A DNA stretch of 63,709 nt, filler included, from Collodictyon triciliatum (taxonomy: Eukaryota): the NCBI GenBank assembly GCA_043381765.1. It is 13 parts of 13 records of this genome, joined end to end, with 100 filler letters (N's around TTAATTAATTAA, not from the genome) between each part and the next. Parts side by side here need not be neighbours in the genome. Positions count along the whole stretch, not along the records: positions 30,220 to 35,149 come from JBHJMP010005636.1; 12 more parts are not named here. One strand, 5' to 3'. Below the pieces are notes generated by a model. It was not told the origin of the DNA. It made no database searches and was given only the letters and a program-made list of their open reading frames with translations. Position 1 is the first letter of the stretch. Each line of letters starts with the position of its first letter. Below are positions 25,399-45,030 of this stretch, piece after piece. The translations under genes and the position numbers were made by a program.

Positions 25399-28219
25399 CA
25401 GTTCATCCTTAATTGATTTTAAAGTAGTCGGGGGAACAGTGAGTTTTTCGAGACGGTCATTAAACTTTCTGATGAGCACTTCTTTCTCATCCTGCTCCAA
25501 TCCTAGTTCTTTTTTAATCATTTTCAGCTACATTTAAGAAATATTGTTGGATTAGTCGCTGTAAAATATTTCGTATTTTTTTTTTTTTTGCATAGTTGAA
25601 AATTAAAGGCACTTGTTCATTCAGGTAATATTTCCTTTGATTTATAGCAATCTTCTCTTCTAACTCCCTAAAGTATTGTTGACATTGTTTAGTGTCCCAT
25701 TGAATGATTATACCTGGCAATAGTTTCAAGGTAGTAAAAACCGCAGCTACTTCATAGAATAATTTCATTACTATCACTATTATTACAGGAACAAAGAAAA
25801 ACAAAACAGATAAATACTTGTGAATTTTATTTTGAAGCTTGTTCACTTCTAGCTCTCCCAAAAGAACAGTAAGGGCAACTTGAAGTTTTTGCTCGACTGA
25901 AGTCATTTCAAGAATTTCCTACATTTTATGAATACCGGGGGGTCACGTAAAGGTTTTTGACACGGAGGGGAGAAAGGGAAGACTAAGTTAGATTTGAATT
26001 TTTTTCTTCTTTCCAAATATACAAATTGATATACTTGGAGCTTTAATGGATCAGCATTACTGAGATACACAGCCAAATCGGCAATCTCGCTTGGATTAGA
26101 TAGATTGACCTGTCCACATATGAAAAGATGAGAATGCTAACATAACAACCAGCTTGTTTACATTACTGAAAAGGAGAAAAAAAAAGTCTTTTCCAGAACA
26201 CAATCTAGTATTGAGTGATACCTGGTCTGCAAAGTGTTGTATCTGCTCCTTAAAGAACGGGTTTAAGCCCAGGATTTCTCTGATAGTGGATGCAATTTCA
26301 GCGACATATGCACGAATGGTTGGATTATTTGCTTGGAATGGTTGGTCCTGATGCGTTTCATCGGGTTGAGACAAAGAGGGCATAATTAGAAATGCAGACT
26401 GTTCCTCCGTTAACATTAACATATCGATTTAGAATGTGCTCGTATAGAACGTGTAAATATCAAACCTTGACGTGAGTAACATTTACAATTGCATGCGGTT
26501 GCGTCTCCGTTATTGTTTCTGCTTTCACACGGCGAAGGCTGTGGACAATAATCTATTTGTTTTAATCATTAATGAAGCGTCATTTTATCTTCATCAAGAA
26601 TCCCTCATCCATCTTGCACAGATCGAAAGAGAGGCGTTTTATTTTATTTCTTTGTTTAAAAACACATCATCAATTCCCTTGAATCGAGTAAATGGAAAAA
26701 GAACATCATCACCATTTATTAATAGCAAGAAAAAGCCATTTATAATGATGATGCAATTTGAGTACTGATACAGCTTGTGCAATACCTCAGTCAGACCAGG
26801 AGTTCTCGACGGGGTTACCTTCAAGATTCGTCCAAGAACACCTTTATTGTGATGGTAAATGATAGGCAAATGTGTGAATAATTAATTTTTTTTCAAAAAA
26901 AAAAAAGAAAGCTAAGGGATAGCAACAACTTTGGATATATGCGAAAGATAAAGGAAACATTCAACCTATCGTATGAATTTGATTCAGGCTAGTCAGAGAC
27001 TTTGCCACATCCTTCTTGCTGTTCTCCTTGACCAAAAATAGACCGATATATGGATTGGCATCACGCTTGGACAAATATTGTGCAAAGCTGTCTGGGATGA
27101 TGACAGGTGACAGAATTGCAGGGAAAGTCGGTCTCCGATACAATGGGAAAACCGGCACAGTCGATGGGAATGTCGGCTCGCTGATTGCACTTGTGGTTGC
27201 ACCCTACGACACAAAAAAAAAANNNNNNNNNNNNNNNNNNNNNNNNNNNNNNNNNNNNNNNNNNNNNNNNNNNNNNNNNNNNNNNNNNNNNNNNNNNNNN
27301 NNNNNNNNNNNNNNNNNNNNNNNNNNNNNNNNNNNNNNNNNNNNNNNNNNNNNNNNNNNNNNNNNNNNNNNNNNNNNNNNNNNNNNNNNNNNNNNNNNNN
27401 NNNNNNNNNNNNNNNNNNNNNNNNNNNNNNNNNNNNNNNNNNNNNNNNNNNNNNNNNNNNNNNNNNNNNNNNNNNNNNNNNNNNNNNNNNNNNNNNNNNN
27501 NNNNNNNNNNNNNNNNNNNNNNNNNNNNNNNNNNNNNNNNNNNNNNNNNNNNNNNNNNNNNNNNNNNNNNNNNNNNNNNNNNNNNNNNNNNNNNNNNNNN
27601 NNNNNNNNNNNNNNNNNNNNNNNNNNNNNNNNNNNNNNNNNNNNNNNNNNNNNNNNNNNNNNNNNNNNNNNNNNNNNNNNNNNNNNNNNNNNNNNNNNNN
27701 NNNNNNNNNNNNNNNNNNNNNNNNNNNNNNNNNNNNNNNNNNNNNNNNNNNNNNNNNNNNNNNNNNNNNNNNNNNNNNNNNNNNNNNNNNNNNNNNNNNN
27801 NNNATGTGCAATGTATTTATTTATAGGTTGTGTTTTTCAAGATATGTTTACTCTGTATAGGTTGGCTTGCTTCCTTGTAAAGCGTGGGTGATTCAGAGAG
27901 CAAGAAAGCCTCGTGCCCTGCGGTTGATTCACAGATGATTAGGAATATGAGCCTTTAGTGCATCACTCCAAATTTTTCTTTTCTCTTTTGGTTCCTTCTT
28001 TTCTCTATTTTATTTTTATTATTTGATAATTCCTTCTTTTCTTTTCTTTTTTTTTTTTAATAGTCAAGAGATGAGAAGGGTTCTGCGAATGAAATCCACC
28101 GTGGCAAGCGGGCGGCTGAAAGGGACGATCGTTGGGTGGCGTGGCAGTGAGGCTGGAAGAAACTGTGCAGCCCTGGAGAAAATCTGCAGAGATCGCGCAA
28201 AGTCTGGCCAGCCCGCCAT
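25399..28219 (-). CDS. LONP1: Mitochondrial-type Lon protease: putative presequence + LAN domain (3' end missing; N gap at 27223-27803)
   Basis: Spliced exons give PVFPLYRRPTFPAIL...PYIGLFLVKE...IHTIG|VLGRI...|IIVHSLRRV...|EIASTIREILGLNPFFKEQ|...|LQVALTVLLGELEVNKLQNKIHK|ELEEKIAINQRKYYLNEQ|LKMIKKELGLEQDEKEVLIRKF. The probable first exons MAGWPDFARSLQIFSRAAQFL...RPLAT|GTRLSCSLNHPRFTRK are Arg/Ser-rich and acid-poor, like a targeting peptide; their link across the gap is inferred. Confidence 0.9.
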
Positions 28220-30042: not shown

Positions 30043-30437
30043 GAAATAAAACGAAATAAAACGAAATAAAACGAAATAAAACGAAATAAAACGAAATAAA
30101 ACGAAATAAAACGAAATAANNNNNNNNNNNNNNNNNNNNNNNNNNNNNNNNNNNNNNNNNNNNTTAATTAATTAANNNNNNNNNNNNNNNNNNNNNNNNN
30201 NNNNNNNNNNNNNNNNNNNATAAAAAACATAAAAAACATAAAAAAACATAAAAAACATAAAAAAACATAAAAAAACATAAAAAACATAAAAAACATAAAA
30301 AACATAAAAAGCATAAAAAAACATAAAAAACATAAAAAACATAAAAAAACATAAAAACATAAAAAAACATAAAAAACATAAAAAAACATAAAAAAACATA
30401 AAAAAACATAAAAAAACATAAAAAAACATAAAAAAAC
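30043..30437. repeat. (AAATAAAACG)n and (AAAAAACAT)n microsatellites either side of a spacer
   Basis: Seen directly; two separate contig ends. Confidence 0.9.
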
Positions 30438-30504
30438 AACTTCATCCATTTGCATTTTCACTTCATTCTTTTTCGTTAAATGTACGACCTTTGAAATACG
30501 AAGA

Positions 30505-33500
30505 GATATTTGGTGGAGTGAAACTCTCACAGCAACAACCTGCCTTATGTCCAAAAAACACTGTAATCGCAAACGGGCGAGTTCCCATATCAGATGACGC
30601 ACCATTTATTTACCGCTTTCTCCGGTCTTTTATGTCAGTAAGGAATACATCATTCTATTTTCTCGACTCAATCCGAAAAAGCTGGAAACTAAATCCTTCA
30701 CTGAGTCAATGTCACCCAATGATTTCCCTTTTAGACTTTTGTTTTTAAGATATTAATTCTTCGAGAAAGCCGATGCAACTACTTATGTAAATTTGAGAAG
30801 TTGTGTTTTTTTTTCTAACACCGTATATGAAAAGATGATTCTGAACACATTCTTCCGCGACATCGAAGTTGTTGGATTGGAAAACGTACCTCTCACTGGG
30901 GGAGTTATCATCGCGGGAAATCATTTCAATCAATTCGTAGATGGGTTGCTTCTAGTGACGTGTTGTCCTCGGTAACCACGCTTCATTACTTTCAACGGAG
31001 GATATAAAATGAACGCAGACCAACTATGATAGCCCCTACATGAACAAAAGAAAAAAGACATCACAAACACAAATCATATCGCACGCAAATCTTGAAAATT
31101 ATTTATCATCATTAAACCACTGTTTCCCTCTAGGCTCTGAAAATTTGATTCGTAAACTTTCTCTAAATTACTGTTACAATTGATAGTGTCATCAGCTTCC
31201 TAATGGCAGCAAAATCATTTTCTCGCCCTGTTGTTGGGTGGTTCGCAAAGAAATTTCAAGCCATCCCAGTCGTTCGCCCGCAAGACAGTGCAATACAGGG
31301 CAAAGGTACCTTTTCGTAATCTAGTACCTCATATGAGCAGTAATGTAACAATAAAAGAGTTAAAAAGAGTTTATGAGATTTAAAATAGAGATGTAAAANN
31401 NNNNNNNNNNNNNNNNNNNNNNNNNNNNNNNNNNNNNNNNNNNNNNNNNNNNNNNNNNNNNNNNNNNNNNNNNNNNNNNNNNNNNNNNNNNNNNNNNNNN
31501 NNNNNNNNNNNNNNNNNNNNNNNNNNNNNNNNNNNNNNNNNNNNNNNNNNNNNNNNNNNNNNNNNNNNNNNNNNNNNNNNNNNNNNNNNNNNNNNNNNNN
31601 NNNNNNNNNNNNNNNNNNNNNNNNNNNNNNNNNNNNNNNNNNNNNNNNNNNNNNNNNNNNNNNNNNNNNNNNNNNNNNNNNNNNNNNNNNNNNNNNNNNN
31701 NNNNNNNNNNNNNNNNNNNNNNNNNNNNNNNNNNNNNNNNNNNNNNNNNNNNNNNNNNNNNNNNNNNNNNNNNNNNNNNNAAAGAAAACCTTCCATCTCA
31801 TCAATATCCGTGTTGAATTTCTTCTTAGGTGAAAAACATAATATCAGATGCAGAAATGCTTATCGAGGAAGATATTGGAACTGTGGAGCCTACTATATAT
31901 AAGGTGTTAAAGAAAGTAGACCAAAAGCAACTTTACGACTCTGTTTATTCAAGCATATCAAATGGTGGATGCATTGGGATATTCCCAGAGGTAGGTTATC
32001 ATATTGTAATTAAGTACTGAGTAAATTATGTTCATTTTTAGACTAGGTACCTCAAAGTATAAATACACTCAAGATTGTGCTACATAACACATCAAATTTA
32101 CTGCTTTTCTAAGACCTGTCCGAAAATACGAGTCTCACTCCATTTATTTAATCTTTTATTAGGGAGGATCTCACGATAGAACGGTTTGTCTAATTTCTAT
32201 GAATTGAATCTTCGATTAACAGAAGTCATAAGTGACCTATAACAAATTTTGTATATTACAGAATTTATTGCCTCTTAAGGCTGGTATCGCAGTAATGTCC
32301 TTAGGTTATGTCGACAAGTATAAAACAGATGCAGTAATTGTCCCTTGTGGATTCACATATTTTGAAGGTCACCGTTTTCGGAGCCAAGTAATCACCATAC
32401 AAATTTTCATCGATAACACTTGTAGTCCTTAGATATCTAATATAAAACATAGCTGAAGTAAGCACACGCCCACACATTAGTGACCCAATAGTCCCGTGCC
32501 TATAAATAGGAAAAAAAAAATCTTTCACATATCGGAATGTAATCTACCTGCTCATATTAAAACGGCTAGGTTGTCATCGAGTTTGGTCTTCCAATTAAAA
32601 TCACACCTGATTCTGAATTCACAAAATCGTACGGAAACGATAGAAGGACAGCATACAAGTAATATTCACTCGAAATTTTTGACGGTTGTTGATGTCCAGT
32701 GTGATAAACTTTATTAGTGAAATTCAGGTTATGATGGAGCCATTCCATATGATTCTTCATGATTTTTTAACATAGCTTTGTTGTTTTCTGTTATTGTAAA
32801 TATGTTTTTTTTTTTTACATGAATATTTTTTTCTCATATCAAAGCCTTCTCCTGGAATCAACCCGTAAAGGACTCGAAGCAGTAACAATAACCGCATCCT
32901 CATACGAAGACCTCTCGGCTTTTCATCTTGCTCGTCGACTTTACCAGGTATGTAGACATAAGGAGTATTATACTTATTTTCAAGTTTTTTTTTGTAACAA
33001 TTGACCGTTTGCATTTTATTTCTTAAGAAATAATTAAAAGACATATACTAGTTTAATCTAATTTTTATGTCTTACAGTAAGCTTCCTGGATTCATGATTT
33101 GCCAAATTAAAACATCTCATTCTAATTTCATCATATATTCAATATAGAGTGCAACAAGTACTTATATGTCTCCATCTGAAAGAGCGCATGTGAGTAAATG
33201 CCCACTTCCTCGTTCATGCTAGATACCCTGACTATCCCTTGATTTGTACGATAAAAAAATAGTTCCTAAAACCAGATTCATCACCAATCTTCACTTTGTT
33301 TATACATCGGTTTAGTTGACTAGAATTTTTCTTAACGCTTACCGAAACGATGAAACACATGCTGAGTTAGACGAACTTAAGAAAAAGTACGTTATACAGT
33401 AAAAAAATACTACACCATCAAGATTGGATTGTAAACTACTACATAATATCAACTCTCTCACATTAACACCCATCTTCTTGCTCATTTGAATATACGTAAC

Positions 33501-35065
33501 TTCAAACACCCAGATTGCTTGAATTCAAAGTATACCTAAGCAGTCTTGGGTTTGATTTGCACCAAATCAAAGAATTCCATGACAGTCTTTTTGTTGTGTT
33601 CCTGTTGTTATTATTCAGGTAATTTGACAATTCTTTTTGCGCACTTGCTTGTGTATAAATATATATGGGTTTAATAGTTAATCAATACATCATTATTCCT
33701 TCCACTGAACTACATGATGCCTTCTGAAAAAATTATAATGAAAAGTGATAACTCACCAGTATCGTTTTTCACATTTCAACCCATTAGAATTGTTGCTTGC
33801 ATTATTCTCTTTATGGTCTCGTTCCCTGGCTTTATTATATCATGTCCAATTATATTACTCGCGCTGTACCTCTCACGTAATTTATTTTCTAAATTTACCT
33901 TTTTGTTTCTATTTAAATATTTATATCTACATGTGAAAAATATAATGAGTATCTAGAATCGAATAAAGGAAAAAAAATATGAGTATCTAAAATTAAGGAA
34001 AAAATAATTGATTGCTATTAGTTCAAGAGATGAAACATGCGAAAGCTACTTCAAATGTGAAAGTTAAAGGAAAAGACGTGGTAAGTTCGCCCTTCTGTTA
34101 TAAATGAGAATAGTTAACATAATCGTGGTGATAATGTAGTCAAAAATTGGTACGAATCCATTTTCCCCTTGTTGATTGGACCAACCACCGTAATATTGAT
34201 GTAAAAAAAAAACTTGTTCTTTATTTCTTCTTCAATAGCACAACTGTACTTATACAACTTAAAATCATTCGTAGATTGCGAGCTACAAAATTGTGGTGGC
34301 TTTTGTATTGACGCCTATTTTCTATCTGATTTATTTGGTTATCGGGTTTGTCCTGGTTGAATTCTTGGCGACGGGCTCCATTCGGTAATCGACGTAGTCC
34401 TATGCCAACCTTACATTTGATATAGAAAACCACCAAAGAAAAAATACATATCATATCGACTTAAATATCTTTGAATCGAATAAAGGAAAAAAAATATCGA
34501 CTTAAATATCACAGTTGGATTTGGCCAGTGGTTGGCCTTCTGTCTGCCCCATTTGTGATTTATGTCTCCATCAAAGCATCAGAGAAAGCTGTGTTCATGA
34601 TGCGTTCCATTCACCCCCTGGTACGATGTCTATTCCCTTATTGCAATAATCCACTTCAATCATTTATCATCCGACCAATCATTCTTGCCGAATATATACA
34701 CAGATATACATGGCCAATCCTTTTGTATCGTCGGAGAAGCAAAGTACATCAGTCCAACCAACTTGATTGGATACATCGCCCCAACCATCAATCCTTCTTA
34801 CACAACAGGATTTTTTTTGTACTTTTTCATCTCGCATACTCTGAAAACATGTGCTTTTGCGTCATCCGCAGGGTTGCTGGCCACTCGCAAGGAGCTTGAG
34901 GATCAAGTCGTGGCCCTCATTCGCAAGCTGCTTCCGTCGGCAATGGAGGAAGGGCTTACGTCCGTGTCTCCACCCGAGCCCCACTACGAGCGGAATGCAA
35001 CGGACCCACTGGCTTCTCATCTCGAGCCTTTTCGCCAACCCGAACATTCACAGCACCCGCAATAA
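30505..35065 (+). CDS. Glycerol-3-phosphate/DHAP acyltransferase, Gpt2/Sct1 type (about 15 exons visible; 5' end and N-gap exons missing)
   Basis: In-frame GT-AG exon chain with motif I GNHFNQFVD, IPVVRPQD, motif III IGIFPE|GGSHDRT, motif IV IVPCGFTYFEGHRFRSQ|VVIEFG, ARRLY, SNVKVKGKDV|IASYKIVV; stop TAA at 35063-35065. Confidence 0.93.
33945..33989 (+). mobile_element. ~23-bp micro-insertion with 11-bp target-site duplication, in a GPAT intron
   Basis: ATGAGTATCTA-[GAATCGAATAAAGGAAAAAAAAT]-ATGAGTATCTA. Confidence 0.8.
34453..34510 (+). mobile_element. 24-bp micro-insertion with perfect 17-bp target-site duplication, in a GPAT intron
   Basis: ATATCGACTTAAATATC-[TTTGAATCGAATAAAGGAAAAAAA]-ATATCGACTTAAATATC. 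Confidence 0.88.
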
Positions 35066-36097
35066 ATGGCCTCGCAGAGTGCGTCTTGTCGTCGTTTGAT
35101 GCCATGGCTGATGCTGACAGACAGACAGACAGACAGAAAAAAAAAAAAANNNNNNNNNNNNNNNNNNNNNNNNNNNNNNNNNNNNNNNNNNNNTTAATTA
35201 ATTAANNNNNNNNNNNNNNNNNNNNNNNNNNNNNNNNNNNNNNNNNNNNTTTGGAGTTGCCCAAGCCCCTCATTCCAGATGATTTTGATTTGGGTGTGCA
35301 GACCCGCCTTGTTTGAATTTTTTCTTTCCAGTATTTTGCGCACAAAATGGTATGAATCAGCAGATTTGCCGCACTTCACGAGGTGGCGTTGTAATCGCCA
35401 CGCTGAGCGATGGGATGATTTGGTCCACGAGAACATGCTCGTTTACAGAAATATGGAGGACTCATAGTTCATGTTCTCACGAAAGCCCATGAGTATTTAT
35501 GTCTCTTTATGTCTCTAATTAATCTTTCTTTCTTTTTTTATGCAATCAATTCGTAATTGTACTATTCCAAACCACAAAATCTGCAAGAAAGATAACAATT
35601 GGATAGCTTCGCAATCAATGCGCTCACATGGCATGTTATTGTATTCAATACAAACGAAATATTGAATGCTGAGACATATACGGAGCATGATAGATTCGGT
35701 ATGATTTTGTCGTAACATAGGGCGAGTGTTTTTTTTGTCTGAAAAAAAAAGGAAGAAGCATGATATAGACAACATAACACATCACATAGGTAGCTTCGAT
35801 GATTGATGTTGTTTTTTTTAAAAAAGTATCTCAGTGCAATCGGCGATTTAAAAAAATTATACTCAAGGAATTACATTTCTTCGAAATCATAATGACAGAA
35901 CTCGAAACCAACGTTCGTGATGTCATCAATAGATTTCGATTGCATTTAATTATTGGTATTGGGTCTACCTCACCAAATGACCTTTGCGTATGCAAATAAA
36001 CTACAGCCCATGATTTTTTATCGTCATTTAAATCCATGAAACGTGTAAGCATCTCGTTTTTTTTAGATACTGACTGTGGTACCCATGTTTCGCGTAG

Positions 36098-38091: not shown

Positions 38092-38182
38092 GAGGGCTCT
38101 CCACTATGCTGGATAACGGCGAAGTCTGCTTCATTTTTTTTATTCTTCCTTTCAACTTTTGTGCACGCGAAGTCTGCTTCAC
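38092..38182 (+). repeat. Solo copy (plus a partial) of the contig-13 satellite subunit, in reverse orientation
   Basis: GAGGGCTCTCCACTATGCTGGATAACGGCGAAGTCTGCTTCA matches the reverse complement of units such as 59101-59140. A second CGAAGTCTGCTTCAC lies at 38168-38182. Confidence 0.8.

Positions 38183-40460: not shown

Positions 40461-45030
<4,570 letters not shown>

Follow-up and report, generated by a model that had tools for sequence, protein, structure and literature searches.

Tail-only micro-insertions in Collodictyon triciliatum and their probable origin from the 3′ end of an APE-type LINE

Units of about 24 bp, each ending in a short A-run, recur between direct repeats in Collodictyon triciliatum. 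They probably arose when a poly(A)-ended APE-type LINE inserted abortively, leaving only its tail because target-primed reverse transcription (TPRT) was cut off 14–20 nt into the template. Each copy of the principal family (family 1) contains only the last 14–20 nt of the 3′UTR. What is new here is the apparent source of the 24-mer, which sequence comparison traces to a LINE tail through a metagenome locus, L008. The kind of event is ordinary for LINEs; the length class is extreme, and two families are narrowly truncated.

Insertions in the window

The window, meaning the whole stretch of DNA analysed, is 63,709 bases long and consists of 13 contigs of ~4.9 kb each with spacers of the form N44-TTAATTAATTAA-N44 between them, giving ~61 kb of sequence. 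Searching it for the 14-mer GAATCGAATAAAGG with up to two mismatches returned seven matches against 0.68 expected, with a maximum of three in shuffled sequence (0 of 100 shuffles reached seven). The seven comprise the four copies of TTTGAATCGAATAAAGG + A5–8 listed in the first-pass annotation, a decayed fifth copy and two minus-strand matches. Allowing up to five substitutions, a 22-mer search gave six matches, namely the five family-1 copies and one at 41707. Both searches thus recover the four original copies in place. All five lie on the plus strand and are spread over four contigs (contigs 3, 4, 7, 7 and 6 for copies 1, 2, 3, 4 and 5; Table 1). The minus-strand matches (12746–12759 and 23741–23754) have neither an A-tail nor a flanking repeat and were dropped as chance. 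The match at 41707, with five mismatches, and a candidate at 27822–27864, with a 9-bp repeat only, were set aside for the same reason.

The A-rich 3′ end adjoins the downstream target copy in all five cases. The A-run is A8 in three copies and A5 in two (copy 4 is given as A7–8), compared with A10 in L008, and is exactly A8 in all three copies with the cleanest repeats. The 5′ starts of copies 2, 4, 3, 1 and 5 fall 17–20, 17–18, 14, 17–18 and ~16 nt before the A-run. The insert had been described as nearly constant in length, which holds insofar as four of the five copies start within 3–4 nt, but the 5′ ends are not strictly fixed and range from 14 to 20 nt from the A-run. A junction C, which is also present in the LINE, is found in 4/5 copies.

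The flanking duplications are variable in length (17 bp, 11 bp, 15–18 bp, ~15 bp degenerate and 9–14 bp degenerate). They were assessed by shuffling the downstream flank 5000 times per copy and comparing the observed score; a null based on randomly chosen positions in the window proved unusable, being inflated by microsatellites and tandem repeats. Two of the five copies (2 and 4) beat all 5000 shuffles, with the other three at p ~0.02–0.06. The direct repeats first reported around four copies are borne out, the score being reached in 0, 168, 0 and 98 of 5000 shuffles for copies 4, 3, 2 and 1. The repeat of copy 5 is not significant by itself, since 322/5000 shuffles match its score. No clear TT/AAAA-type nick motif was seen by eye at the duplication starts. 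Given five copies in ~61 kb and the graded decay of their repeats, the very high genomic copy number and long period of activity proposed earlier are plausible.

Table 1. Positions of the insertions, their duplications, host introns and other features along the window.
Feature	Position	Strand	Details
Copy 1 (older)	14575–14597	+	TTTGTATCGAATAAAGGG + A5; 22/24 vs L008
Copy 1 duplications, degenerate	14558–14573 / 14598–14612	+	16 vs 15 bp, 1 mismatch and 1 gap; 98/5000 shuffles
Copy 2	18636–18660	+	TTTGAATCGAATAAAGG + A8; preceding CAC (18633–18635) also matches the LINE; 28/28 vs L008 over 18633–18660
Copy 2 upstream duplication	18618–18635	+	15 bp perfect inside 18 bp with 1 mismatch; partner 18663–18680; 0/5000 shuffles
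Copy 3	33956–33977	+	GAATCGAATAAAGG + A8; shortest tail, 14 nt; 22/22 vs L008; inside intron 33877–34021
Copy 3 upstream duplication	33945–33955	+	11 bp perfect; partner 33979–33989; 168/5000 shuffles
Copy 4	34470–34493	+	TTTGAATCGAATAAAGG + A7–8, 24-bp insert; 26/26 vs L008 3′ terminus
Copy 4 upstream duplication	34453–34469	+	17 bp perfect; 0/5000 shuffles
Copy 4 downstream duplication	34494–34510	+	17 bp perfect; ends 3 nt before the 3′ AG of intron 34384–34513
Copy 5 (oldest; absent from the first-pass annotation)	26679–26700	+	TTGAATCGAGTAAATGG + A5; ~82% vs L008
Copy 5 flanking repeat	26664–26672 / 26703–26711	+	ACATCATCA; 9 bp perfect inside 14 bp with 2 mismatches; 322/5000 shuffles
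Family-2 copy	38134–38166	-	GTG + CACAAAAGTTGAAAGGAAGAAT + A8
Family-2 copy duplication	38167–38181 / 38119–38133	-	TGAAGCAGACTTCGC; 15 bp perfect; 0/5000 shuffles
Family-2 copy	11194–11226	+	CACAAAAGTTGAAAGGAAGAAT + A11; CT-rich low-complexity flanks; 180/5000 shuffles
Intron holding copy 3	33877–34021	+	GT..AG, 145 bp; joint 33876 to 34022 in X1 (depth 29.5) and X2 (depth 16)
Intron holding copy 4, same gene	34384–34513	+	GT..AG, 130 bp; joint 34383 to 34514 in X1 and X2
Host gene of copies 3 and 4	30563–35081	+	at least 14 GT..AG introns of 83–215 bp, confirmed by cDNA contigs
Tandem satellite, contig 13	58940–63070		52–60 bp unit with TGAAGCAGACTTCG and CATAGTGGAGAGCC; 11 exact copies of TGAAGCAGACTTCG
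Satellite-related unit, contig 8	38090–38185		target of a family-2 insertion
A-rich 10-mer microsatellite	20153–20288		(AGAATAAAAA)13.7
A-rich 10-mer microsatellite	30043–30119		(GAAATAAAAC)7.7
A-rich 10-mer microsatellite	30222–30438		(AAAAAACATA)22.8
Open frame, contig 11	50334–55256	-	1641 aa, open throughout; WD40 propellers and 24 Ephrin_rec_like stretches
Paralogous copy of the contig-11 frame, contig 1	1–2700		interrupted
CDC20/Fizzy-like frame, contig 12	56859–58454	-	531 aa, intron-free

Apart from the insertions, the window holds several long coding frames. Its WD40/Ephrin-receptor-like repeat proteins, its CDC20-like frame and its GT..AG introns mark the DNA as eukaryotic. Contig 12, which carries the CDC20-like frame bounded by long A and T runs, has a GC content of 0.52, above the rest. 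The best relative of this frame is a transcriptome protein at 52% identity, followed by haptophytes, animals, algae and others at ~40–50%, a pattern that points to no particular taxon. For a RINGv frame in contig 6 no relatives were found. Among the 27 long open frames scanned in the window there is no reverse transcriptase (RT) or endonuclease domain.

A second family of the same build

A second family was found via 14-mers common to different contigs. Family 2 has the same build as family 1 (CACAAAAGTTGAAAGGAAGAAT + A8–11), with 22–25 nt before the A-run, and its two copies have an identical 5′ start. TTGAA...GAATAAA is common to both families. The flanking repeat is weak at 11194–11226, as 180/5000 shuffles match its score. 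That the family-2 tail behaves like that of family 1 suggests a property of the machinery and not of one sequence.

The window was also scanned for any insert of 8–120 bp that ends in at least A5 and is enclosed by exact repeats of 9 bp or more. This yielded family 1 (three cases), family 2 (one), one weak 9-bp case and five tandem-repeat matches, and the templates therefore appear to be specific and not random mRNAs. Beyond the window, neither tail had a match in a scan of viral contigs, and no parent element came to light for family 2; three matches in a scan of genome contigs were bacterial and without repeats, and were rejected as chance. A literature search with the motif and its reverse complement found nothing.

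Tandem and simple repeats are also prominent in this DNA. Most contig ends consist of microsatellites, and the first 165 bases of contig 7 reach a word depth of 1000–2800 in both cDNA-type runs described below (X1 and X2). The family-2 tail ends in the AGAATAAAAA unit, and A-rich arrays may therefore be seeded by LINE tails.

A candidate parent LINE

The first-pass annotation had suggested a search for a longer element ending in the insert sequence, and a candidate was found. The 19-mer GAATCGAATAAAGGAAAAA was matched exactly at 35 loci in public metagenome contigs. In 34 of these the TTT prefix is absent, the preceding bases differ and the context looks unrelated, suggesting chance matches. 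In the remaining locus, L008, a non-LTR retrotransposon fragment (minus strand) has as its 3′ terminus the full 17 nt of TTTGAATCGAATAAAGG followed by A10. As ~0.5 of 35 matches would carry the TTT prefix by chance, the weight of L008 lies in the position of its tail at a LINE end. L008 is a lone metagenome contig of 1157 bp.

A 202-aa open frame in L008 matches the Pfam domain zf-RVT (E 1.5e-7, 32.4 bits, cut-off 27.5), the C-terminal zinc-binding domain of LINE ORF2 proteins. Relative to two related fragments, P0121 and P0122, there is a frameshift at 549–606 (minus strand), just past the zinc-binding motif, and this LINE copy is therefore defective. According to the same two fragments the frame continues beyond the frameshift, leaving a 3′UTR of ~95 nt that ends in the 17-mer. 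Beyond the A-run the GC content drops to 0.29 over 101 nt, from 0.52 upstream of the tail. The L008 tail is not flanked by a direct repeat, and the fold of the 3′UTR end just upstream of the tail shows no structure beyond that of shuffles (z -0.29).

A full HMMER scan with the L008 frame recovered 14 relatives, seven of them at E 1e-10 or better; a word-based search found no longer relatives. The frame is 97% identical (182/188) to fragment P0135 and 98% identical to P0121, both from other assemblies, and the element is therefore a multi-copy family. Four long relatives (1226–1275 aa, 29–38% identity) all carry Exo_endo_phos and RVT_1, with zf-RVT below cut-off in three of the four. RVT_1 and the endonuclease are seen only in these 29–38% relatives, as the family fragments P0121 and P0135 stop short of the RT domain. 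Judged from these similarities, L008 appears to represent the 3′ terminal part of an APE-type LINE that is young and multi-copy.

When L008 was compared with the window (blastn with word size 7, and tblastx), the tail alone matched and no longer LINE fragment was present in ~61 kb. Among public contigs a single family member was found, a long copy (L008), and no tail-only copies.

Host introns and an apparent empty site

Parts of contig 7 occur in two small cDNA-type runs (X1 and X2) and several freshwater metagenomes. The RNA nature of X1 and X2 was assigned as a guess; their contigs contain spliced joints, and the comparison covered contig 7 alone. The gene hosting copies 3 and 4 is acyltransferase-like, in that the Pfam Acyltransferase domain has a weak match in one exon (E 0.0024, below cut-off). 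Spliced joints in both runs show that these two copies lie in introns in the sense orientation. The transcript therefore carries the A-rich strand, and the earlier idea that the reverse complement resembles a polypyrimidine tract or a spliced-leader end is unsupported. An introner-type element was likewise rejected; the GT and AG of both introns lie outside the insert and duplications of copies 3 and 4.

The first-pass annotation also called for a search for empty-site alleles, and a contig lacking the insert and one repeat was found at copy 4. This X1 contig (depth 30.1, at least 50 nt per side) joins 34452 to 34494 and skips 41 bp, with 17 letters fitting both sides. The skipped stretch is exactly the 24-bp insert of copy 4 plus one 17-bp repeat. 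Since many substitutions separate X1 from the window, the skip looks like an empty-site allele from another strain, at one site, in one contig and in one run. The same product could also arise by slippage from one repeat to the other, whether in vivo or in the course of cDNA synthesis. With the empty allele, the copy-4 intron would shrink from 130 to 89 bp.

The bin containing copy 4 has a depth of 106.7 in X1 and 74.6 in X2, compared with mostly 10–40 in neighbouring bins. At 34460–34467 the contigs of X1 and X2 have loose ends; in all four of those listed (there are 31 further ones) the upstream sequences are mutually unrelated and unlike L008. These four have the look of additional tail-only copies from other sites, each with its own flanks. 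One loose end in X1/X2 is presumably a template-switch oligo.

Mechanism and competing explanations

On the established TPRT model, an abortive tail-only insertion would begin with the LINE endonuclease nicking the target, whereupon the reverse transcriptase would prime on the nick and copy a short A-run. The second target end would then be attached to the short cDNA, in many cases through a shared C, and filling in of the staggered break would create a duplication of 11–21 bp. The machinery may, for example, fail to go from initiation to processive synthesis after ~20 nt, in both families alike.

The oligo(A) end and the variable duplications of 11–21 bp support TPRT by non-LTR machinery, as originally proposed. 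Of the three origins then offered for the insert, the best fit is RT stalling at a fixed point in a LINE, as 17 nt + A10 form the 3′ terminus of L008. The point is not strictly fixed, with starts varying from 14 to 20 nt. Two features of the copies count against the tail-only LINE reading, namely the A8 run of the three young copies and the starts of four of the five copies within 3–4 nt, as these also fit a discrete template. Further points against it are that the RT and endonuclease domains come from 29–38% relatives, that the sole public family member is a long copy, and that the 3′UTR just upstream of the tail has no strong fold on which an RT might halt. In addition, a fragmented assembly breaks at repeats, and longer copies may therefore be under-represented.

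Such a discrete template could be an RNA of ~25 nt ("nano-SINE"), consisting of the 17 nt and an encoded A8. It would carry a LINE 3′ recognition tail, be reverse-transcribed all the way to its 5′ end and be mobilised in trans by LINE proteins. This is unlikely, even though the two features just named, the shared 5′ start of the two family-2 copies, the lack of a longer LINE fragment in ~61 kb and the specificity of the templates in the any-insert scan all speak for it. The 17 nt leave no space for an internal promoter, the 5′ ends vary (14, ~16, 17–18, 17–18 and 17–20 nt) and Rfam has no match in the window. Moreover, the identical sequence is the LINE terminus in L008, which explains the origin without a separate gene. 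A SINE was rejected on related grounds; there are 14–20 nt before the A-run, with no internal RNA polymerase III promoter or small-RNA-derived head, and Rfam was negative in the window.

The copies could also be the visible end of ordinary 5′ truncation with smoothly distributed lengths, if longer fragments in high copy number are lost from the 4.9-kb contigs of a short-read assembly and the shortest alone remain. The contigs do end in microsatellites, the assembly is highly fragmented and the single public family member, L008, is a long copy. Strong 5′ truncation is also the rule for LINEs in the accessible text of two sources (PMC2887409, PMC11702581). Nevertheless, with lengths spread smoothly over kilobases, 61 kb that holds five copies shorter than 21 nt should hold hundreds of longer ones. 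Copies of 30–100 nt should assemble, because a 52–60 bp satellite was assembled through in contig 13, yet none is present in the window. All five window copies and the four listed loose ends instead fall in one narrow class, making ordinary truncation distinctly improbable.

An origin outside retrotransposition, by templated DNA-repair insertion (proposed earlier, with nothing found in its favour), the footprint of a DNA transposon or an artefact of assembly or library, is very improbable: the inserts are very short and template switching occurs in cDNA-type libraries such as X1 and X2, but the A-tail is at one end only, the duplications vary in length, there are no terminal inverted repeats, four contigs hold copies with graded decay, the same tail stands at a LINE end in an independent metagenome and no adapter-like sequence is involved. 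A DNA transposon, MITE or footprint was rejected on its structure, with no inverted termini and duplications of 11 to at least 18 bp.

Comparison with known systems

The tail-only insertions resemble 5′-truncated, poly(A)-ended APE-type LINEs (L1-like) in the retained 3′ terminus, the A-tail, the variable duplications and a microhomology of at least 1 nt (C) at the 5′ junction. In the accessible part of PMC11702581, junction microhomology is also described at truncated human L1 insertions, and de novo L1 insertions in a human cell model have a median length of 712 bp. By contrast, merely 14–20 nt are copied here, the A-tail is short and uniform (A8) and there is no clear TT/AAAA-type nick motif. 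The likeness extends to the candidate parent, with its zf-RVT C-terminal domain and with APE and RT in its relatives.

SINEs can borrow the 3′ tail of a LINE, forming LINE/SINE tail-sharing pairs. The units described here are similarly short and non-coding, end in the 3′ tail of a partner LINE and are inserted with duplications. They differ in having no promoter-bearing head (tRNA, 7SL or 5S) and a slightly variable 5′ end. To our knowledge, a unit of ~24 bp is several-fold shorter than any known SINE.

Class 1 templated sequence insertion polymorphisms in humans are, as far as the accessible text of PMC5110952 goes, short templated insertions with LINE-mediated features that are present or absent among individuals. 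They derive from many transcripts, whereas here the LINE's own terminus is reused. In Lepidoptera, truncated RTE elements seed microsatellite families, according to the accessible portion of PMC2887409. There, too, a LINE 3′ end alone lies between duplications and tails are linked to simple repeats, and the (AGAATAAAAA)n array of the window resembles the family-2 tail. As described in the same portion, the lepidopteran elements differ in retaining part of the RT coding region, in having SSR tails and not A-tails, and in their duplications of 6–12 bp.

Implications for genome evolution

If tail-only copies are the dominant output, the two families would leave about one scar per 9 kb (seven scars in ~61 kb), each of 20–30 bp. 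Scars this short escape repeat maskers and would be scored as ordinary indels. They bring AATAAA motifs and A-runs into introns and may seed the A-rich 10-mer microsatellites at contig ends. A sharp class of 14–25 nt would mark the point in TPRT where the reaction either turns to processive synthesis or is resolved by host repair. Should the length distribution prove smooth, the finding would be one of ordinary 5′ truncation.

A stronger form of the tail-only LINE reading is that a built-in stop after ~20 nt, or a processed tail RNA of ~25 nt, makes tail-only micro-insertions of 22–33 bp the main product of this LINE lineage. This is put forward tentatively, and the odds are on balance against it. 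If true, these would be the smallest retroposed units described. Hidden from standard repeat annotation, they would also supply, at high density, indels, A-rich microsatellites and AATAAA motifs within introns.
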